A stretch of 64,000 nt of DNA from positions 1-64,000 of the IMG/VR virus record IMGVR_UViG_3300032770_000013; one strand, 5' to 3'. This DNA comes from a virus. Shown here piece by piece: positions 13,690 to 23,649 of the stretch. How positions within the stretch are numbered: the stretch's first letter is position 1; the number at the start of each line of letters is the position of its first letter. The translations under genes were made by a program, and so were the position numbers. A model generated the notes under the pieces. It searched no databases and was not told the origin of the DNA. It worked only from the letters and a program-made list of their open reading frames with translations.

Positions 13690-13764
13690 TGGCAAGGGAC
13701 CGGAGATTTGAACTCCGACTGCATGGTTTTGGAGACCAGCCGACTGCCGTTATCTTAGTCCCCT
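13690..13764 (-). tRNA. tRNA-Trp(CCA)
   Basis: Cloverleaf, CCA end. Confidence 0.9.
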
Positions 13765-13765
13765 A

Positions 13766-13837
13766 TGGTACTGCGTGAGGGTTACGATCCCTCTTGAGCC
13801 GGATTCACAGTCCGTCCCCTGTCCAACAGCACGCAGC
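13766..13837 (-). tRNA. tRNA-His(GTG)
   Basis: Cloverleaf with short D-arm, A73, no G-1. Confidence 0.85.
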
Positions 13838-13842
13838 ATATT

Positions 13843-13916
13843 TGGTAGCGCGCCCCGGTGACGATCCGGGCCAACCATCCTTATGAGAGACAGCCGTTCA
13901 CCAGCGAACGCGCGCT
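13843..13916 (-). tRNA. tRNA-Met(CAT)
   Basis: Cloverleaf, atypical T-loop. Confidence 0.8.
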
Positions 13917-13923
13917 GTAAATT

Positions 13924-13999
13924 TGGCAGCCGAGGTAGGTCTCGAACCCACAACCTTCAGATTCAAAGTCTGCTGCGCTACCAATTACGCCACTCGGCC
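13924..13999 (-). tRNA. tRNA-Gln(TTG)
   Basis: Cloverleaf, CCA end. Confidence 0.92.
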
Positions 14000-14003
14000 G
14001 TAT

Positions 14004-14078
14004 TGGCACCCCGTGCGGGTGTCGATCCCGCTTCTCCGGTTTGAAGGACCGGGATTCTAGCCGGTAAACTAACGGGGC
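14004..14078 (-). tRNA. tRNA-Glu(TTC)
   Basis: Cloverleaf, C33. Confidence 0.88.
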
Positions 14079-14083
14079 AAAAA

Positions 14084-14157
14084 TGGTGCGGGCTCGGGGA
14101 CTCGAACCCCGAACCTCTGGTTGGAAGCCAGATACGTTACCTTTACGCTAAGCCCGC
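14084..14157 (-). tRNA. tRNA-Gly(TCC)
   Basis: Cloverleaf, CCA end. Confidence 0.92.
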
Positions 14158-14243
14158 GGCGGAAAGCTGAGAGCACGATTCTCACACCCGAAGGTGCCCT
14201 TCGTTTAGCAAACGAGGACGGGATCCCACCCGCTTAGCTTTCC
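14158..14243 (-). tRNA. tRNA-Ser(GCT)
   Basis: Long variable arm; ends GCC directly against tRNA-Gly. Confidence 0.85.
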
Positions 14244-14247
14244 GTAT

Positions 14248-14324
14248 TGGTGATCTCGGGAAGACTCGAACTCCCACACAATCGTTTAGGAAACGATGGC
14301 TCTGTCCAGTTGAGCTACGAGACC
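14248..14324 (-). tRNA. tRNA-Arg(CCT)
   Basis: Cloverleaf, CCA end. Confidence 0.92.
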
Positions 14325-14325
14325 G

Positions 14326-14396
14326 TGGTCTGGCGAGGACTCGAACCTCGATCCAACGCTTAGAAGGCGTCGCTTTATCCCGTTAAGTACCAGACC
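14326..14396 (-). tRNA. tRNA-Arg(TCT)
   Basis: Cloverleaf; full CCA not encoded after the discriminator. Confidence 0.85.
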
Positions 14397-14401
14397 GTAT
14401 T

Positions 14402-14475
14402 TGGAGGAACAGGGGAGAATCAAACTCCCATACGCGGGGTTGCAATCCGCTGCATCATCACTCTGCCACTGTCCC
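14402..14475 (-). tRNA. tRNA-Cys(GCA)
   Basis: Cloverleaf, U73. Confidence 0.88.
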
Positions 14476-14479
14476 GTAT

Positions 14480-14553
14480 TGGCACCCCTTGATGGAATCG
14501 AACCACCCTCTGCTGGTTCAGAGCCAGCCGTCCTGCCGATGAACGAAAGGGGT
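14480..14553 (-). tRNA. tRNA-Gln(CTG)
   Basis: Cloverleaf, CCA end. Confidence 0.9.
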
Positions 14554-14557
14554 AGAT

Positions 14558-14633
14558 TGGTCTGGGTGCGGTGTTCTGCCCACCGTCCTTCTGGTTCCAA
14601 GCCAGAGACTCTTCTAGCACGAGCTTCACCCAG
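14558..14633 (-). tRNA. tRNA-Pro(TGG)
   Basis: Cloverleaf, atypical D- and T-loops. Confidence 0.8.
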
Positions 14634-14639
14634 ATAAAA

Positions 14640-14718
14640 TGGAGCACACGGGGAGAGTCGAACTCCCATTTTCCAGTTACGGTTCCAATGATTCGTAGTC
14701 ATGGCCGATTACGTGTGC
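14640..14718 (-). tRNA. Atypical D-armless tRNA-like gene, anticodon ACG (Arg)
   Basis: 7-bp acceptor stem, T-arm, anticodon arm and CCA; no D-arm; about 20-nt extra region. Confidence 0.65.
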
Positions 14719-14719
14719 A

Positions 14720-14794
14720 TGGAGCCGCCAGCGGGTTCCGACCCCGCTTCATTTGGTTGAGAACCAAATATCCTAGCCACTAGACGATGGCGGC
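14720..14794 (-). tRNA. tRNA-Glu(CTC)
   Basis: Cloverleaf, CCA end. Confidence 0.88.
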
Positions 14795-14798
14795 AAGT

Positions 14799-14882
14799 TG
14801 GCTGGAGAGGGAGGGATCGAACCTCCGCCACGATGGGGACTCCGGTTAACAGCCGGGCACATTACCGCTCTGTCACTCTCCA
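14799..14882 (-). tRNA. tRNA-Asn(GTT)
   Basis: Cloverleaf with extended variable region. Confidence 0.88.
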
Positions 14883-14883
14883 A

Positions 14884-14955
14884 TGGTGGAGAAACGGAGA
14901 ATCGAACTCCGAACGGCAGCCTTGCAAGGGGTGCCTGTGTCCCAACACTTTCCCC
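14884..14955 (-). tRNA. tRNA-Ala(TGC)
   Basis: G3:U70 pair, short D-arm. Confidence 0.85.
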
Positions 14956-14959
14956 GAAA

Positions 14960-15035
14960 TGGTGCCCGGTCGTGGTTTCGAGCCACGCTCTCCTGCTCTT
15001 CAGGCAGGCGCTTTCACCAGATTAGCTTACCAGGC
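14960..15035 (-). tRNA. tRNA-Phe(GAA)
   Basis: Cloverleaf, CCA end. Confidence 0.9.
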
Positions 15036-15036
15036 T

Positions 15037-15110
15037 TGGTGCGGACACGGGGAGTCGAACCCCGGCCACTTCGTTGGCAACGAAGGAGACTGCCGTAATC
15101 CTTTGTCCGC
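15037..15110 (-). tRNA. tRNA-Gly(GCC)
   Basis: Cloverleaf, CCA end. Confidence 0.9.
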
Positions 15111-15111
15111 A

Positions 15112-15197
15112 TGGTAGGCGAGGCAGGACTCGAACCTGCGAAGACCGAAGCCGAGGGTTTTACAGACCCTTGTCGTTGCCGCTTGAACTACTCGCCC
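15112..15197 (-). tRNA. tRNA-Tyr(GTA)
   Basis: Long variable arm, CCA end. Confidence 0.92.
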
Positions 15198-15202
15198 TTA
15201 AT

Positions 15203-15276
15203 TGGTTGCGCAGGCCAGAGTCGCACTGGCGTCTTCAGGTTATGAGCCTGATATGGAACTCCTCCACTACCGCGCG
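15203..15276 (-). tRNA. tRNA-Met(CAT), initiator-like
   Basis: C1:A72 mismatch. Confidence 0.82.
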
Positions 15277-15282
15277 TCAGTT

Positions 15283-15371
15283 TGGCGGAAACGTGAGGTC
15301 TTGATCCCCAATGGCTTGCGCCATCCATCTCGCTTCGAACGAGCGCCGAGCACTTGCCCAGTTACGTTTCC
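15283..15371 (-). tRNA. tRNA-Ser(CGA)
   Basis: Long variable arm, G73. Confidence 0.85.
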
Positions 15372-15376
15372 GTATT

Positions 15377-15463
15377 TGGCGGAAGGCTGAGAACATGATT
15401 CTCATACGTTGCCGTACCAGCCGCTTTCCAAGCGGTGCCGGAGCCCTGTCCGGTTAACCTTCC
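15377..15463 (-). tRNA. tRNA-Ser(GGA)
   Basis: Long variable arm, G73. Confidence 0.87.
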
Positions 15464-15467
15464 GTAT

Positions 15468-15552
15468 TGGCGGATGGCTGAGGTGTCGATCCCCATACCT
15501 TGCGGTACTACGAGTATTCAAAGCTCGCTGCCGGGCCGCCGGCAAACCATCC
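15468..15552 (-). tRNA. tRNA-Ser(TGA)
   Basis: Long variable arm, G73. Confidence 0.8.
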
Positions 15553-15557
15553 GTATT

Positions 15558-15634
15558 TGGCGTTCCCTCGGTGATTCGAACACCGGGCCTCGGGCTTCGG
15601 AAACCCGCGCTCTTTCCTGCTGAGCTAAGGGAAC
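15558..15634 (-). tRNA. tRNA-Arg(CCG)
   Basis: Cloverleaf, CCA end. Confidence 0.92.
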
Positions 15635-15948
15635 AAAATTCCCGCCTTTTCAATAAAGACAATCTGCTTGTCGTCCTTCAAGATCGTCGGCCCGCGGCCG
15701 CACTTTCCGTCGAGCGCTTGAAACAGCGCCGTGATGAGGTTGTCCAAGTCCGGCCCGGTCGGGTCGATAAACAGCGCCGATAAGGAAATCTGGTGCTTCA
15801 GTTGCACAAGGCCAGCTTCCTGTGCTGCTTTCCACAATTCCTCTCGATAGCGCTTTAGCACCTCGCGATGAACGCGGCGGTGCGGTGCGCCATGCACATA
15901 GACCGTCAGCAGGCGCCGTGGATGATCGTACTGAACCTTGCAGCGCAT
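15625..15948 (-). CDS. rusA: RusA-like Holliday junction resolvase inside the tRNA array
   Basis: PDLDNL...DG...KDDKQI motif; GAGG RBS before ATG at 15948. Confidence 0.75.
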   Translation of the reverse strand: MRCKVQYDHPRRLLTVYVHGAPHRRVHREVLKRYREELWKAAQEAGLVQLKHQISLSALFIDPTGPDLDNLITALFQALDGKCGRGPTILKDDKQIVFIEKAGILFP

Positions 15949-15960
15949 AATCGCCTCGTT

Positions 15961-16035
15961 TGGTGCTTGCGCCGGGATTCGAACCCAGGTCAAACGGTTA
16001 TGAGCCGTCGGCACTAGCCACTGTGCTACACAAGC
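15961..16035 (-). tRNA. tRNA with CAT anticodon, probably Ile2 (lysidine type)
   Basis: Cloverleaf; third CAT tRNA in the array; Ile2-like arms. Confidence 0.8.
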
Positions 16036-16038
16036 AAT

Positions 16039-16115
16039 TGGTCGGGGTGGCAGGCTTCGATCCTGCGACCACTCGCTTCCGAAGCGAGGACTCTACCTGG
16101 CTGAGCTACACCCCG
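16039..16115 (-). tRNA. tRNA-Pro(CGG)
   Basis: Cloverleaf, CCA end. Confidence 0.92.
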
Positions 16116-16121
16116 TTGAAT

Positions 16122-16196
16122 TGGCGCGACTGGCGGGTGCTGACCCCGCGTCCTTTCCCTTGACAGGGGAGTGCTCCACCGTTGAGCTACAGCCGC
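16122..16196 (-). tRNA. tRNA-Asp(GTC)
   Basis: Cloverleaf, G73. Confidence 0.88.
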
Positions 16197-16200
16197 ATTA

Positions 16201-16276
16201 TGGTGTGCATGGGGCGAATCGAACGCCCACTGAACAGCTTCTCAAGCTGGTCCCTCTGCCGTTGGGGTACATGCAC
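16201..16276 (-). tRNA. tRNA-Leu(GAG)
   Basis: Cloverleaf, short variable loop. Confidence 0.88.
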
Positions 16277-16279
16277 GTT

Positions 16280-16355
16280 TGGTAGACCACCGGGGATTCG
16301 AACCCCGACCTCAGGGATTAAGAGTCCCGCGCTCTGCCGTTGATGCTAGTGGTCT
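16280..16355 (-). tRNA. tRNA-Lys(CTT)
   Basis: Cloverleaf, CCA end. Confidence 0.9.
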
Positions 16356-16360
16356 GTGAA

Positions 16361-16443
16361 TGGCGAACCCCGGTGGTTTCGAGCCACTTGGCGACGGGTT
16401 AAAAGTCCGGTCCCTCTCCATTCGGGTTTAAGCCTCGGGGTCC
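16361..16443 (-). tRNA. tRNA-Lys(TTT), atypical
   Basis: About 8 extra nt between acceptor stem and D-stem. Confidence 0.75.
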
Positions 16444-16490
16444 AAAGACCCCGCGTTTGAGTGGGTCACTCATTTTTCGAGTTCCTTATT

Positions 16491-16564
16491 TGGTGCGCCA
16501 GTGAGGAATCGAACCTCCGTCCCACGGTTATCGGCCGCGTTCTCTGCCATTGAGATACAAGCGC
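16491..16564 (-). tRNA. tRNA-Ile(GAT)
   Basis: Cloverleaf, C33. Confidence 0.88.
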
Positions 16565-16570
16565 ATTTGT

Positions 16571-16645
16571 TGGTGCGTCGTCGGTGAGTTGAACACCGGA
16601 CCTTTTGCGTGTCGAGCAAACGTTCCACCGCTGAACTAACGACGC
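16571..16645 (-). tRNA. tRNA-Val(GAC)
   Basis: Cloverleaf, C33. Confidence 0.88.
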
Positions 16646-16646
16646 A

Positions 16647-16721
16647 TGGTAGGCGCTGAGAATTACGATATCTCGACCTTCGCGGTGTAAACGCGACGCT
16701 CTTCCTCTGAGCTAAGCGCCT
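16647..16721 (-). tRNA. tRNA-Val(TAC)
   Basis: Cloverleaf, CCA end. Confidence 0.88.
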
Positions 16722-16727
16722 GTAAAT

Positions 16728-16804
16728 TGGTGCCCTAGGCAGGCCACGATCCTGCACTGAAAAGGGTTTAAGCCTTCTCCCTCTGCCAATTGGGGTACTA
16801 GGGC
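16728..16804 (-). tRNA. tRNA-Leu(TAA)
   Basis: Cloverleaf, short variable loop. Confidence 0.88.
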
Positions 16805-16805
16805 G

Positions 16806-16881
16806 TGGTGCACGTCTGGCGATTTGAACGCCGACTGAACGGGGTTTGAAGCCGCTGCCTCTGCCATTGGGCTAGACGTGC
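16806..16881 (-). tRNA. tRNA-Leu(CAA)
   Basis: Cloverleaf; register matches the other Leu tRNAs. Confidence 0.82.
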
Positions 16882-16885
16882 AAAT

Positions 16886-16962
16886 TGGTAGCCTCGGGGA
16901 GATTCGAACTCCCAACGCATGCCTTCTGAGGGCATCGTCTCTGCCAATTGGACTACGAGGCC
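16886..16962 (-). tRNA. tRNA-Leu(CAG)
   Basis: Cloverleaf, short variable loop. Confidence 0.9.
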
Positions 16963-16967
16963 GTAAA

Positions 16968-17041
16968 TGGTGCCCTCTACAGGTTACGATCCTGTGTCCG
17001 CTCCTTACCAAAGAGCAATTCTGCCATTGAACTAAGAGGGC
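16968..17041 (-). tRNA. tRNA-Thr(GGT)
   Basis: Cloverleaf, CCA end. Confidence 0.88.
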
Positions 17042-17046
17042 GCGAT

Positions 17047-17121
17047 TGGTGCCGGCTGGGTGAATCGAACACCCGCACTCTGCTTACAAGACAGAACCTC
17101 TGCCACTAAGGATAAGCCGGC
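17047..17121 (-). tRNA. tRNA-Thr(TGT)
   Basis: Cloverleaf, CCA end. Confidence 0.9.
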
Positions 17122-17122
17122 A

Positions 17123-17196
17123 TGGTGCTGGTTCCGTGAATCGAACACGGGCAACCTTCTTACGAGGGAGGTGGACTGCCACTATCCTAAGCCAGC
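17123..17196 (-). tRNA. tRNA-Thr(CGT)
   Basis: Cloverleaf, CCA end. Confidence 0.9.
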
Positions 17197-18128: not shown

Positions 18129-19046
18129 CTACAATTTCGCCATCGGCACTATGCCAAGCCGATCGAGCGCATTCCCAATGCAAGCGGCTGGCGTCAGAAT
18201 ATCTCTAAACCTCTCAAACTGCTTGGCATACAGCGCCTTCCAGAACGGCTTGTAGGATTCCGCCTCCCGGTAAAACCCGTCCAAGCTATCCGCAAAGCTG
18301 ATGATCTGATTCCAAGGCGCAGCCAATTCATGCGGCTCCGCAATGACCGGGCGTCCAAGGCTTAATGCCGACGCGCAGCGAGAGGACGACACCAGCCCCA
18401 TTTTCTCAAGGATCCGGATTTGCACGATAATCCGCGCACTCTGCATTTCCAGATCACGGGTCTCCTGCGCCGAAGCCGTTGGGTTATGCAAGGAAATCAA
18501 CTTGACCGTCCCGCGCCGACCAAGCTTCCTGAGAATTTTATATCGCCTGTTCGACACTGAGCCATAAAACCCGAAATCATGATCTGGCTGGCGGATTTGC
18601 GGCCGCATCATGCCGGGAGAATAGCCGAGTTCAATCTGCTCTGTCGGTGCATATTGCCCATACCAATGCGCTGTGTTCGGCACTAGAGCTAAGACGGCAT
18701 CGGCATATTTGGCGGCTTCGGGAAAAAGAGCCTGCCGCAAAACCATAAATCGATCGGCAGCATGATTAAAACCAACAAATCCAGGCTCCTCACAAGGCTC
18801 TTCAGTTGCAACAAAGATGAACCGACAATCATGTAATCTGCGCGCCTCTTTAAGCATGGCAATCGAAAGTAAATTAAATCCTTCAAAAATCAGATTTACA
18901 CCATCCTTTCCACGTAGAAATTCATCGTCCGAATGATCTATTTGATGACCTAAAGATCGGAGTTGATGGACAATAATTTGCGATGGGTCTTGTAATGACA
19001 GCCTGCCAATTTGTGAGTGATTAAAAAGATTTAACCGAAAGCGCAA
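18129..19046 (-). CDS. Glycosyltransferase-like protein (GT-B type)
   Basis: DFGFYGS...RR and VSSSRC...RPVIAE motifs; paralog of 53585-54772. Confidence 0.55.
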   Translation of the reverse strand: MRFRLNLFNHSQIGRLSLQDPSQIIVHQLRSLGHQIDHSDDEFLRGKDGVNLIFEGFNLLSIAMLKEARRLHDCRFIFVATEEPCEEPGFVGFNHAADRFMVLRQALFPEAAKYADAVLALVPNTAHWYGQYAPTEQIELGYSPGMMRPQIRQPDHDFGFYGSVSNRRYKILRKLGRRGTVKLISLHNPTASAQETRDLEMQSARIIVQIRILEKMGLVSSSRCASALSLGRPVIAEPHELAAPWNQIISFADSLDGFYREAESYKPFWKALYAKQFERFRDILTPAACIGNALDRLGIVPMAKL

Positions 19047-19048
19047 AA

Positions 19049-19139
19049 TCGCCTCGCCATACCAAACCGGGCCGATGCCAAAACATGCCTTACCTTTGCG
19101 AGCCGGGGCTTACCAAACTCCAGCATGCCGCACCATAAC
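19049..19139 (-). ncRNA. GGY-NN pentamer tract E (putative guide RNA)
   Basis: About 18 units, ending GGCGAGGCGATTTT. Confidence 0.75.
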
Positions 19140-19157
19140 TCAAAGCGATAAAAAAAT

Positions 19158-19254
19158 CCTCGCCGCGCCACACGCTGCCAGACCGTGCCGTGCCTCAGCA
19201 GACCCCGGCTCGCCCCGACAGGCCACGCAAGACCCGGCCGCAGCGTACCATGCC
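19158..19254 (-). ncRNA. GGY-NN pentamer tract D (putative guide RNA)
   Basis: 19 in-phase units, ending GGCGAGGA-T7. Confidence 0.8.
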
Positions 19255-19277: not shown

Positions 19278-19410
19278 CCTCGCCTAATCCAAACCTCACC
19301 CGGCCTTGTCATACCTTGCCACAGCTCACTGAGCCAAGCCGGGCCGCACTTAACCTAACCTAGCCACGCCCCGCGTTGCCAAATCGCGCCCGGGATCGCC
19401 ATGCCCAACC
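19278..19410 (-). ncRNA. GGY-NN pentamer tract C (putative guide RNA)
   Basis: About 26 units, ending GGCGAGGATATTTT. Confidence 0.75.
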
Positions 19411-19421
19411 GCTCCGCAAAC

Positions 19422-20036
19422 CTACTTGAAGTTTACGATTCCAAAGCGGCCGAATGTCGGCCTAAAATCACCGATGCCGATCAAGCGACCAGCACTTTCA
19501 ATCGTTTCGCGCAAGGCATTGTGATCGACGTATTCCGGCAGCATCACGAGAAGATCAAACGTGACCTTCCAGCCGGCGCGCAAGGCAGGCCGCACGCGGT
19601 TGATACCTTGGCGCTGAATCATAACGCGCCGTTTATCCAAATAATCCCAATCCTTTACGCCGAGAGTGGCGAGCGGACTGGTGACGACAATGGCGGCCTT
19701 GAACAGGTCCATTGCGGACTTCCGCGGTGACCGCGGATCTTGCCGGAATTTCGCCGCGTTGATGATTGAGCCGCGAAGATACTCGCCGGGGACACAGATT
19801 TCACCGGCGTCGTTCCGATAGACGTAGGATTCTACGTCATCGGTCTTTTTGCCTTTGGAATTTTTAGCGGCGCGGGCTTTTTCATCGACCGCCTCGCTAT
19901 TCCATCTGTGCATTAAAAGATCGGCGGCCCCTTGAATCGTCACGCGAACCGGATATGGCTCGCTGTGAGAGATGACTTCGTTGCCACCGGAAGTCGGCTC
20001 AGAAATGTGGATAACTTTAGCTTTAGTTGCAGTCAT
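19422..20036 (-). CDS. Stand-alone RAMP/Cas7-like RNA-binding protein (Vipr-like)
   Basis: VTIQG..DLLMH, VPGEYLRGSI, RVRP and C-terminal G-loop GIGDFRPTFGRF; flanked by pentamer tracts. Confidence 0.75.
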   Translation of the reverse strand: MTATKAKVIHISEPTSGGNEVISHSEPYPVRVTIQGAADLLMHRWNSEAVDEKARAAKNSKGKKTDDVESYVYRNDAGEICVPGEYLRGSIINAAKFRQDPRSPRKSAMDLFKAAIVVTSPLATLGVKDWDYLDKRRVMIQRQGINRVRPALRAGWKVTFDLLVMLPEYVDHNALRETIESAGRLIGIGDFRPTFGRFGIVNFK

Positions 20037-20060: not shown

Positions 20061-20149
20061 GGAGACCTCACCGCACCGATGCTTGCCCTAGCTTGCCCAA
20101 CGCGACCTGACCAAGCCGCACCAAAGCGCGCCGTAAGCAAAAGGTCTCC
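20061..20149 (-). ncRNA. GGY-NN pentamer tract B closed by a GGAGACC/GGTCTCC stem
   Basis: About 14 units inside a 7-bp inverted repeat. Confidence 0.75.
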
Positions 20150-20269: not shown

Positions 20270-20297
20270 ATAATACCGAAAATAAATCGAATGTCTA
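20270..20297 (-). promoter_or_regulatory. Sigma70-like promoter for tract B and the RAMP gene
   Basis: TAGACA-16nt-TATTAT. Confidence 0.5.
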
Positions 20298-20316: not shown

Positions 20317-20332
20317 TGTTTCACGTGAAACA
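20317..20332. promoter_or_regulatory. parS-like ParB binding site
   Basis: Perfect palindrome TGTTTCACGTGAAACA. Confidence 0.7.
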
Positions 20333-20345
20333 TTTTGGTAATGTC

Positions 20346-20464
20346 GAACGGAGCCCGAAGGCCCCGTTCTCCCTTACCGAAACTCACCGCAGCCAACCGG
20401 ACCGGACAAGACCATGCCGAAGCCCACAACGGCAAACCATACCAAGGCCAGCACAAGCCCCACC
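20346..20464 (-). ncRNA. GGY-NN pentamer tract A with 3' hairpin
   Basis: About 18 units then GAACGGGGCC-TTCG-GGCTCCGTTC; TATAAT upstream at 20478-20483. Confidence 0.75.
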
Positions 20465-20517: not shown

Positions 20518-23500
20518 TCATGTTTTGCGATTCTCAACATGAGCGAACGGCTTGGTGGTCTTACCATGTTCAAGCCATTTTTTGAAATCCGGCAACGTCA
20601 TTTGGTGAATTGCGCCGACACGGTCCACTCCTCGTCCATCTGCAAATGCGCGGTGATAGACATTGGTGGCATGCTTGAGCGATGCCGCGCCAAGAATTAT
20701 TTTGTGCTCATCGAACTTCTTAGTGTCGGCGTCAACTTGATCCACGATGTAAACACATTTCGCTCGCGGGTGGTCGCACAAAAATACGTCTAGGTTATCA
20801 CCATCGGCACCATCGTGGCGTTTCAAATATCCGTAGTGGGCTGGAAGCACGCTCCGCCAAGGACGACCATCCTTATCGATGCCGCGACGGATTCCGCCTT
20901 TGCCATTTTCAATGGTGATCTGAAGTCCGAATTTGTGCAGATGGTCCTTTTTGTAATTCCCCGCTGCGATCTGCGCTTTGCTTGGATGCTTTTCGATATT
21001 CCGCACTTCGACTCTTCCCCCATGCGCCCGCTTTGGCGTCAAATTCTCGATTGCCTCATCCTTCGTCTTTCCGGTCGAGAGTAATTCGCCGTCCTTGTCG
21101 TAGACGCCCCATTTATTGAGCGGGATACCGGTAAACTCAGCCGTCAGACCTTGCGGTAATACTCGGCCGCCGCTGGCTCTTGCCTGCGCCTTTTCCTGCT
21201 GAGAGACCGTTGGCCTGCCCTGCAATTCATTCGATATATCGCTGATCCAGTTATCTTTTTGACCAGTGACGTTCATCATGAAGTTGTCGTACAGCTTTTG
21301 CGGTGTTGATTCGCTGCGCGCATCCTCCACGTTGGTCGACGGTCGAAAGTCCGCGTATGGGTCTGGTGCCGGACCGCCATCAGCTCGCTCAATTCTCTCG
21401 CGCGGCCCTATTGGATCGCTTGGATCGACGTCGGCTGTTTGCCGAGCCATCTGCCATTCGGCGTTGGATTGAGATTCGGGATGATCGTCTGGAGCGCAGA
21501 TAGAGCCGCCTTGGGCCATCCCTTGTGTATTGGTCTTTGCGAATGGATCGTAATCTACGGGAACGGTTTGGAAATGAGATGCACCCCCTGCAACCAATCC
21601 GGCGAGGCCGTATTTCTTGATGATGTCGATCAGCTTGTCGTTGAAGACGACGTAATTTCTGGTCGGATTCTCATATGAATTTATCTGCGCCTGAAGGTTT
21701 TTGATCACGCCTTCATCACCGCGCGCTTGGGCTTTTTCTAAAGCTGTCCGCAGTGCCTGCAATTGAGTCGGTGTCGCGCGAGAGCCTTGGTCTAGATATT
21801 TGATACCGGGGATTCCAGCATCGCGAAGTTGCTGCGCCACGCGCTGAACATCGGTGTGACCTTGGCCCGGCGTATGCAGACTGATTTCATTGTTGCGATA
21901 AATCTGCTCGCCGGTCTGATTCGCGTGCGCTTCTGGATGCGCGAGCCAAGCGTCTTTTAATTTTTGCTGGACAGCCGGACTCTGCTCACTCAGCGGCTTA
22001 TCCCAATCAAGGAAATGCTCGGGATCGGCGTTGATGTTGACTTCGTAGAGATTGCCAGCCTTTGATGGGTATGGTATTTCACTGCGAACATGAAGATCGC
22101 CCTTATCTGCGCTTCTTGCGGCAAGAGCTTCCTCAAGCATCGCAGTGCTTTGAGGCCCAATCAGCGGACGTTTTGCAGTCGCGAGTGCCACGTAAGGGGC
22201 CAGCATATCGACGGCCTTAACGCGGCTGGCTACAAGATTATTCGCGTTGGTAGGAAGCAAGTCTACGAGCATAGATGGATTATTGAGCAAAGCATCGGAC
22301 GTAAACTCCTTCCCACCGAGCATGTGCATCACATCAACGGGAAGAAGTCGGACAACCGCCTTTCCAATCTCCGGGTCTTGGAGGAGTCCACGCATCACCG
22401 GGAGCACGTCGCTCCTACTTTCGACATCGAGCGAGCGAAAGCCCTTTACGAGCAGGGGATTGGATACCGCAAACTTGCCGAAATTTTCGGCGTGGCTCGC
22501 CAAAACATCAGAGGGTGCTTCATACGTAGGGGCTGGCATGTTACCGGCCGTACCCGCCGTTCTATAACTCTCGGCAGTTGATGGATGCTCAGCCAGATAA
22601 ATTCCATGCCCATAAGCCTGTGCGCCTTCGCCGGTGCCGATCTTCGATAGATCGAACTTGTCGAAGTCGTAGGGGCTGCCGTGATAGGCGCGGATGCCTT
22701 GGGGTTGTGGAACTTCGGACAACAAAGGATGAATGAGCTTATCGCTTCCGACATTAGCGGGATCAAACGAATCAAAACGTGATCGCACTTGGCTCGGTTC
22801 AAAGACCATGATGTGCGGACGACCCGGCGTTCCAGTTATCTCCTTCTGCGGATCGCCAATGATCGCATCATATCCAGCGTCCCGAATGGCCTGAGCCTTT
22901 AGCGCCACAGGTGTGTCTTGACCAAGGCCGTGATAAAAAAGCGTGCTGCCGGTCCAGTATTTCAGCGGGCCACCTTCGATCATCTTTTTGGCCTGCTCGG
23001 TGCGGCCGGCGGCTTTCAAAACTTCTGCCGCTTGCTCGGCAGTTATCGGCTGGTCCATGCGAAACGGATTCTGCACTTTGAGCTTGACGGGCATGACGCG
23101 CGGAGTATCGCCGGACCAGGCGCCAGTGTGCTTATTGGCAAATTCAGCGGACGGCGTGAAATAAAAGTTGCCCCCGTATTGTATGTTGTCGCGGACCTTC
23201 ATCGGATCGAAAGCTTCGAACTCCTGCGAGCCAGTCCCGTGGAATGCGTCAATCGTCCAACCTTGCTGTGCGGCTCGCGCCATCCGGCTTGCTTCATCCA
23301 TTGGGAGCGCAGCGCGAGCGGCAGCAGTTAATTCCGGCGCAACCTTTTCGGCCGCCCCCATCGCCACCTTGGCTGCCCGCATTTCCGGCGTCAGCAACCC
23401 GGCAGCCGACATCAGCGCGAAGTTCTGCGCTTCATCGGGCGTCATCTGACCACGCAACGCGCTGATTGCATCATTGACGCCAGTCACATCGCCAGCAACA

Positions 23501-23649
23501 TTGGCGACCTTCCCGGGCATTGATGCTATATCTTGCCCTACAGTCGGTGGCGCAATTGTCTGCCCCGGCTTGGCGACTGGCCCTACCGCGAACGGATCAT
23601 GATCGACCGGAACGAGGTCATAATCAGGCTGCAATTGATCGTCGGGCAC
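20518..23649 (-). CDS. Polyvalent ejected protein: two ADP-ribosyltransferase-like domains and a C-terminal pyrophosphatase-like domain
   Basis: AFHGT..YFTP; AYHGSPYDFDKFD..GHGIYLAE; GNYKK..ITIEN..HYGY..GADGD..FDEHK. Confidence 0.7.
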   Translation of the reverse strand: MPDDQLQPDYDLVPVDHDPFAVGPVAKPGQTIAPPTVGQDIASMPGKVANVAGDVTGVNDAISALRGQMTPDEAQNFALMSAAGLLTPEMRAAKVAMGAAEKVAPELTAAARAALPMDEASRMARAAQQGWTIDAFHGTGSQEFEAFDPMKVRDNIQYGGNFYFTPSAEFANKHTGAWSGDTPRVMPVKLKVQNPFRMDQPITAEQAAEVLKAAGRTEQAKKMIEGGPLKYWTGSTLFYHGLGQDTPVALKAQAIRDAGYDAIIGDPQKEITGTPGRPHIMVFEPSQVRSRFDSFDPANVGSDKLIHPLLSEVPQPQGIRAYHGSPYDFDKFDLSKIGTGEGAQAYGHGIYLAEHPSTAESYRTAGTAGNMPAPTYEAPSDVLASHAENFGKFAVSNPLLVKGFRSLDVESRSDVLPVMRGLLQDPEIGKAVVRLLPVDVMHMLGGKEFTSDALLNNPSMLVDLLPTNANNLVASRVKAVDMLAPYVALATAKRPLIGPQSTAMLEEALAARSADKGDLHVRSEIPYPSKAGNLYEVNINADPEHFLDWDKPLSEQSPAVQQKLKDAWLAHPEAHANQTGEQIYRNNEISLHTPGQGHTDVQRVAQQLRDAGIPGIKYLDQGSRATPTQLQALRTALEKAQARGDEGVIKNLQAQINSYENPTRNYVVFNDKLIDIIKKYGLAGLVAGGASHFQTVPVDYDPFAKTNTQGMAQGGSICAPDDHPESQSNAEWQMARQTADVDPSDPIGPRERIERADGGPAPDPYADFRPSTNVEDARSESTPQKLYDNFMMNVTGQKDNWISDISNELQGRPTVSQQEKAQARASGGRVLPQGLTAEFTGIPLNKWGVYDKDGELLSTGKTKDEAIENLTPKRAHGGRVEVRNIEKHPSKAQIAAGNYKKDHLHKFGLQITIENGKGGIRRGIDKDGRPWRSVLPAHYGYLKRHDGADGDNLDVFLCDHPRAKCVYIVDQVDADTKKFDEHKIILGAASLKHATNVYHRAFADGRGVDRVGAIHQMTLPDFKKWLEHGKTTKPFAHVENRKT
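22090..22581 (+). CDS. HNH endonuclease with zinc finger and HTH, nested antisense within the polyvalent gene
   Basis: CASC..FCSREC; YEHR..VHHINGKKSDNRLSNL; C-terminal HTH. Confidence 0.8.
   Translation: MKIALICASCGKSFLKHRSALRPNQRTFCSRECHVRGQHIDGLNAAGYKIIRVGRKQVYEHRWIIEQSIGRKLLPTEHVHHINGKKSDNRLSNLRVLEESTHHREHVAPTFDIERAKALYEQGIGYRKLAEIFGVARQNIRGCFIRRGWHVTGRTRRSITLGS

Follow-up and report, generated by a model that had tools for sequence, protein, structure and literature searches.

A VIPR guide tract in a metagenomic phage genome, probably directed at the primase gene of a rival element

A tract of GGY-NN pentamers, here called tract D, lies beside a homologue of the Vipr protein in a metagenomic phage genome, and it probably encodes a vrRNA aimed at the P4-type primase gene of a rival element in the same host. 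The two variable letters of each unit match codon positions 1-2 of a TOPRIM motif at the level of the gene family, and the code by which they are read operates at the same locus through a second guide, tract B, which fits the vipr genes of other phages. We infer that tract D is expressed and loaded onto Vipr and that its target exists today.

VIPR (Viral Interference Programmable Repeat) systems combine an early-branching RAMP protein, Vipr, with vrRNAs that alternate GGY and NN; they act on targets on either DNA strand, with PAM absent and transcriptional silencing as the outcome, and in nature they are directed at rival phages, satellites and other VIPR systems (10.64898/2026.04.26.720920, 10.64898/2026.04.26.720927, 10.64898/2026.10.15.759431; below, the 2026 VIPR preprints). 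The NN letters pair with dsDNA, with a 1-nt skip at the wobble position (10.64898/2026.04.26.720920). Cryo-EM of Vipr showed one protomer per repeat, sequestered GGY bases and an R-loop triplex, and biochemistry showed that specificity is set by the NN letters (2026 VIPR preprints). Natural targets were called by the authors at an NN match of at least 80%, a level that self-targets never reach (2026 VIPR preprints). The exemplars of type II VIPR are Escherichia phage SUSP1 and a Pseudomonas fulva prophage (2026 VIPR preprints; PDB 36pp). In SUSP1, vrRNA4 reads the active-site codons of a satellite recombinase, matching 89% of read bases in 119 satellites, and its silencing has been shown (10.64898/2026.10.15.759431).

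The Vipr homologue and the layout of its locus

The source record is 95,988 bp long and complete according to CheckV; the window analyzed here is its first 64 kb. The minus-strand non-coding DNA between 19047 and 20480 is made wholly of five-base units, arranged in five GGY-NN tracts of 12-25 units each, all of them at the vipr locus and on the vipr strand (Table 1). Pooled over all 92 units, G makes up 83% of position 1 and 79% of position 2, and C or T makes up 88% of position 3, with close to uniform letter use at positions 4-5. This period-5 structure is far above chance, and no pentamer periodicity was found elsewhere in the 95,988-bp genome on either strand. All five tracts end in GGYRAGG, after which C, D and E have a U-run and A has a UUCG hairpin; the tails of A and B have only the GGYRAGG part (GGUAAGG and GGUGAGG, respectively) in common with those of C, D and E.

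Table 1 Features of the VIPR locus (window coordinates)
Feature	Position	Strand	Remarks
vrRNA A guide region	20379..20443	-	13 units; TATAAT upstream, 10-bp UUCG hairpin downstream
Sigma-70-like promoter match TAGACA-16-TATTAT	20270..20297	-	upstream of tract B and vipr
vrRNA B guide region	20073..20132	-	12 units and GGUGAGG tail; in the vipr 5' leader
vipr gene	19422..20036	-	204-aa RAMP (Cas7/Csm3-like), homologue of SUSP1 Vipr
vrRNA C guide region	19291..19415	-	25 units
vrRNA D guide region	19165..19254	-	18 GGY-NN pentamers
vrRNA D 3' tail	19135..19164	-	GGCGAGGAU, U7 and a short AU-rich spacer reaching tract E
vrRNA E guide region	19060..19134	-	15 units, 17 counting tail units
305-aa gene	18129..19046	-	directly 3' of the C-D-E array; possible accessory (vap) gene

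The open reading frame between tracts B and C (19422-20036) matched no Pfam family, and its sole PHROG assignment is uncharacterised, yet its 204-aa product has more than 5,800 metagenome relatives. An AlphaFold model built from 16 homologues had a mean pLDDT of 74.7. The top Foldseek matches of this model were all Cas7/Csm3 proteins, with an E-value of about 2e-6, and VIA-align gave a Z of 11.2 to Csm3 (6ae2_B), with RAMP chains of the Cas7, Cas5 and Cas6 types occupying the top 43 rows. A profile of 16 homologues matched one solved structure, "SUSP1 Vipr protein" (PDB 36pp); the alignment covers residues 32-201 and has an E-value of 1.3e-10. The G-loop GD[FW]RPxFGRF is conserved, reading GDFRPTFGRF here and GDWRPRFGRF in SUSP1, and the histidine of the motif LFHRW aligned with H17 of SUSP1 Vipr, which contacts G1 of the repeat. 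Because this neighbour of the tracts has a predicted Cas7/Csm3 fold and matches the solved SUSP1 Vipr, the gene is, on homology and modeled structure, a vipr gene and the locus a VIPR locus. Nearly all of 96 loci with vipr homologues also carried GGY-NN tracts beside the gene and on its strand. The loci derive from prophage regions and from metagenomes of soil, peat, marine and groundwater origin, and they span many phyla.

No direct-repeat (CRISPR) arrays were found around vipr, where the flanking non-coding DNA consists of the pentamer tracts, and an Rfam search returned tRNAs only. No relative of the locus turned up by blastn among GenBank phages, and the 305-aa gene belongs to no Pfam, PHROG or NCBIfam family. 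Thirty-one co-oriented tRNA genes (ARAGORN) are packed into 3.5 kb at 13690-17196, 2 kb from the VIPR locus, and a 1043-aa polyvalent protein (20518-23649) with ART-PolyVal, DUF3990 and inorganic pyrophosphatase domains is encoded directly upstream of tract A. A perfect 16-bp palindrome, TGTTTCACGTGAAACA (20317-20332), separates the terminal hairpin of tract A from the promoter-like site preceding the vipr operon, and this palindrome is identical to the chromosomal parS consensus.

The gapped code in tracts B and E and in related loci

The NN string of each tract was scanned across the genome in the form NNx NNx... For tracts B and E, the best match among 192,000 genome positions fell inside an adjacent gene and in codon register. 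When other pentamer letter pairs, or spacing steps of 2 and 4, were used as controls, the scans returned glycine-repeat artefacts only.

Tract B carries the strongest case. It matched the vipr genes of three other loci (L014, L018 and L019) at 23/24 NN letters (96%), or 26/28 with the tail units, whereas its match to the vipr gene of its own phage (19891-19931) was 17/24 (71%), or 19/28 with the tail units. Since tract B fits the foreign vipr genes at 23/24 and its own at only 17/24, the code operates at this locus. The foreign sites, among them L003 3094-3134, L014 2467-2507 and L018 2695-2735, are matched in codon register, and the matches persist over differing wobble bases (TCC/TCG/TCA, CGC/CGG/CGA and similar). 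The own allele reads GAADLLMHRWNSEA where the alleles of the other phages read GSADFLFHRWNAEA. It uses TTA and AGA where guide B expects CT and CG, so that Leu CTG>TTA and Arg CGN>AGA, together with four residue changes, distinguish it from the foreign alleles at this site. The residue changes fall in the motif holding the histidine that contacts repeat G1. This arrangement looks like self-immunity by recoding, placed beside a guide against rivals.

The best genome-wide match of tract E was the gene directly downstream of it, at 18865-18914, with 24/34 letters over 17 units and 21/30 (70%) over 15 units. None of 3000 local shuffles did as well; the matched stretch belongs to the first third (5') of this gene, which is AT-rich, and is read in codon register, and the match is below 80%. 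Tract E may be part of another pair of own and rival alleles. No homologue of the matched gene (18129-19046) was found. Searches for targets of the remaining upstream and downstream guides found none for tract C and no significant one for tract A. The best matches within the own genome were 69% for A, 71% for B, 52% for C, 58% for D and 70% for E, all of them under 80%.

When the units of 170 non-redundant tracts were shuffled, the local match of 12 tracts proved significant at p <= 0.01, compared with 1.7 expected, and the locus-best match lay within the 400-nt zone in 21 of 124 cases, compared with 11 expected. Matches occurred in both orientations, and the matched codons were often those of catalytic motifs. 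In one Planctomycetota prophage, a sense guide upstream of a helicase gene (L053 4986-5110) spells the Walker A sequence AVLPTGSGKT of that helicase, and in another, a sense guide upstream of an AAA_24-like ATPase gene (L080 2420-2519) spells its Walker B sequence VVLDSLDWLE. Both guides fitted other loci better than their own (34/50 and 30/50, respectively, for L053; 31/40 and 25/40 for L080).

Two explanations of the tracts that do not involve guides were considered and dropped. A TRAP-like or G-quadruplex leader with free spacer letters does not agree with the fit of tract B to foreign vipr genes (26/28). Regulation in cis, by antisense pairing with the neighbouring mRNA, is at odds with the sense matches in L053 and L080 and with the better fit of foreign alleles; furthermore, the five differences between tract B of the window and that of L002 are not accompanied by compensating changes in the target.

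Tract D and the TOPRIM motif of primases

On the minus strand, beginning at 19254, units 1-9 of tract D are GGCAT GGTAC GCTGC GGCCG GGTCT TGCGT GGCCT GTCGG GGCGA, and units 10-18, ending at 19165, are GCCGG GGTCT GCTGA GGCAC GGCAC GGTCT GGCAG CGTGT GGCGC; unit 18 is followed by GGCGA GGATT and a T-run. The NN letters are AT AC GC CG CT GT CT GG GA GG CT GA AC AC CT AG GT GC, letter for letter the string given in a preliminary description made from the sequence alone, whose interval of 19158-19254 covers the guide region and, in addition, the first 7 nt of the tail. Taken as codon positions 1-2 in the standard code, these letters give (I/M)TARLVLG(D/E)GL(D/E)TTL(S/R)VA, and units 5-18 yield LVLGEGLETTLSVA, which is the first TOPRIM motif. 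That description had treated D as a guide with a 2-of-3 gapped code, which is the published VIPR rule and was found independently here through tract B at 23/24. It had also stated that the TOPRIM motif is absent from the window, and indeed no match to Toprim, Toprim_2, Toprim_3, Toprim_4 or DUF7146 was present, the whole 95,988-bp genome included. The best match of tract D in the rest of the genome, 21/36 (58%), is at chance level.

To compare tract D with sequences chosen without reference to it, it was scanned blindly against 119 loci fetched independently of D, comprising 1.26 million positions. The maximum score, 24/38, was reached at six positions, and three of these were one and the same gene (L076 = L097 = L117), which encodes a primase with a zinc ribbon, DUF7146 and Toprim_3 and is located, in another phage, at a distance of 3.4 kb from vipr. 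The match is in frame and in sense orientation, at MGICEGVETALSCA, the only Toprim_3 primase motif in the set, and 0 of 2000 unit shuffles of D were as good at this site.

Sub-pattern scans of IMG/VR gave higher scores in further primase genes. The primase of a provirus, L129, matched D at LVLGEGIETTLSVA with 27/36 letters overall and 26/28 in units 5-18, and the match at residue 233 is the first position of its Toprim_3 domain. Other primases also reached 27/36, at LVLGEGIETCLSVA (L147/L150), LVMGEGIETTLSVW (L139/L142) and LIIGEGIETALSVA (L126/L128). At the homologous site LVLGEGIETTLSLA, L148 matched 24/28 of the D core, and L076 matched 20/28. Pfam placed DUF7146 and Toprim_3 in L129, L147 and L097, and DUF7146 with a DnaG-type zinc ribbon in L148, which had no Toprim_3 match at E <= 0.001. 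No vipr gene was present in the best-match records checked for one (L126, L129, L131, L135 and L139). The motif LG[IV][AG]EG[VI]ETAL[SA] is general in 120 homologous primases, and because it is family-wide, the match of tract D names a gene family and not a particular rival. At the protein level, 2.5% of D shuffles equaled the best score against the 120 primases.

The TOPRIM reading of tract D is therefore supported by sequence comparison as real at the level of the gene family, in line with the preliminary description, which had the string spelling this motif: primases with DUF7146 and Toprim_3 match units 5-18 at 26/28, and another gene of this family shared the top score of the blind scan. 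The description had gone on to name the replication gene of a competing element as the target, with few mismatches expected. This part held for the gene family and for units 5-18; a competing element as the bearer of the gene is the probable reading, and over all 18 units the best match among the sites scanned was 27/36 (75%) and none reached 80% of NN letters. IMG/VR was scanned by exact sub-patterns only, by which a true target at 80-90% could be missed, or none may exist. The exact 20-letter core of D was absent from IMG/VR, and a search of 401 genomes from a single phylum, allowing up to 3 mismatches, did not find the core pattern. Ten matches to units 2-9 of D were rejected as chance sites.

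By the published mechanism, one Vipr protomer would occupy each GGY-NN repeat, hiding GGY and presenting NN; the NN bases would pair with two of each three bases on one strand of dsDNA, and the resulting filament would silence the bound gene. The letters of D would thereby read codon positions 1-2 of a hydrophobic strand followed by E-G-x-E-T-x-L-S, in the family of P4-type primases (zinc ribbon, DUF7146, Toprim_3). D would pair with the template strand of the primase gene and skip its wobble bases, and because these are skipped, the primase target would not escape by synonymous changes. The sense orientation of D, as opposed to the antisense orientation of B and E, poses no problem since VIPR binds either DNA strand. 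As the phage itself has no TOPRIM gene, the primase would be that of a rival, which could be a provirus, a satellite, a plasmid or another phage. A more specific proposal is that VIPR shuts off the replication of the rival at the TOPRIM motif and that the 14 tail-proximal units of the 18 suffice to pair, which we regard as possible but rather doubtful.

Alternative readings and relation to known systems

Tract D could be a genuine vrRNA whose TOPRIM match is a relic of a drifted guide or an extinct rival, with no effective target today. We consider this unlikely, although several observations lean toward it: the best full-length match is only 75%, units 1-4 (AT AC GC CG) never found a match beside a TOPRIM motif, and most tracts in the 96 loci have no detectable local target. 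NN letters also turn over fast: tract B alone is recognizable in a relative with 93% identity in Vipr, and no tract is recognizable at 80% identity. Neutral drift, however, would not scramble four units yet spare their 14 neighbours, and the 14 consecutive tail-proximal units are still clean and in frame (26/28 to L129); scans by exact sub-patterns, moreover, could easily miss a target at 80-90%. It is less probable still that D is aimed elsewhere, the TOPRIM motif being a coincidence of a degenerate two-letter code and the true target an antisense gene (S-A-T-L-(S/R)-V-V-S...) or a host or decoy site of the kind described for solo vrRNAs. Such a coincidence would account for the three unrelated sites that equaled the 24/38 of the primase motif in the blind scan, for three exact 16-letter matches to E-G-L-E-T-T-L-S, rejected as non-TOPRIM chance sites, and for the 20-aa peptide of D, which on its own matched nothing in Pfam or PDB and, by tblastn, nothing among plasmids and phages. 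It would have to place a single in-frame TOPRIM motif among about four top sites in 1.2 million, a chance on the order of 1e-5, in the face of 0/2000 shuffles. The antisense decoding of D also scored lower against the primases than the sense decoding (7 and 10, respectively), and the letters outside the search pattern fit too: 16 of the 28 core letters of L129 were fixed by the pattern, so that independent support for the TOPRIM reading comes only from the 12 free letters, of which 10 matched.

A last alternative, which we hold to be highly improbable, is that the tracts are only a platform for Vipr binding, a leader or trailer that titrates or nucleates the protein while the NN letters are free to vary. 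The near-uniform NN composition would be expected of such a platform, as would the lack of targets for C and A and of a target for D in its own genome. The 23/24 match of tract B to foreign vipr genes would be impossible without selection on NN; the excess of low-p local matches among the 170 tracts and the published biochemistry, in which the NN letters set specificity, speak against free letters as well. We therefore retain a guide against the primase of a rival as the probable reading of tract D.

The locus resembles the type II system of SUSP1 in having a lone, phage-borne small RAMP homologous to SUSP1 Vipr, with a single vrRNA ahead of the gene and an array behind it, all on one strand. 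The GGY-NN units and the skipped wobble base are likewise shared, as are a guide against the vipr genes of other phages and self-matches that are always below 80%. The Vipr described here is, in contrast, a distant relative rather than a close orthologue (profile E = 1.3e-10), and by sequence the vrRNA tail is a short GGYRAGG with a U-run, where the SUSP1 clade has a pseudoknot. As with SUSP1 vrRNA4, tract D is read wholly at codon positions 1-2 of a catalytic motif, in an enzyme needed for the multiplication of the rival; in this case the enzyme would be a primase and the target is deduced from sequence, while for vrRNA4 the target is known and silencing was demonstrated. Compared with the backbones of class 1 CRISPR-Cas systems (Cas7/Csm3/Cmr4), the RAMP fold is shared (Z 11.2 to Csm3), and in VIPR, as in class 1, one protomer binds each guide repeat and a thumb flips out bases regularly. 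The present locus has no repeat-spacer array, and a VIPR guide has a 5-nt period with two paired bases, reading two of three target bases, as opposed to 6 nt with five paired bases in class 1.

With the VIPR system already described in preprints of 2026, no new principle comes from this locus, and tract D plausibly adds a new target to a known system. The locus does show that the skip-one code can be recovered independently, by computation alone, in a distant Vipr clade from soil phage, and it clearly exemplifies a guide whose fit is 96% to foreign vipr alleles and 71% to its own recoded allele. The TOPRIM motif of P4-type primases would be a candidate new target class; neither "primase" nor "toprim" occurs anywhere in the main text of 10.64898/2026.04.26.720920 or of 10.64898/2026.10.15.759431. 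If this class is confirmed, VIPR would block the DNA replication of a rival, besides excision or the lysis-lysogeny switch, and if pairing by 14 of 18 units is true, long natural vrRNAs would work with a partly unpaired 5' end. Tract D, with 18 units, is longer than the 9-16 units reported for the vrRNAs of SUSP1. Tracts of some relatives are much longer still or more dispersed, including uninterrupted tracts of 117 and 138 units (L086 4574-5158 and L088 4579-5268, respectively) and, on a contig of an archaeal MAG, 15 tracts scattered over 5 kb of intergenic DNA (L092 2710-7486).
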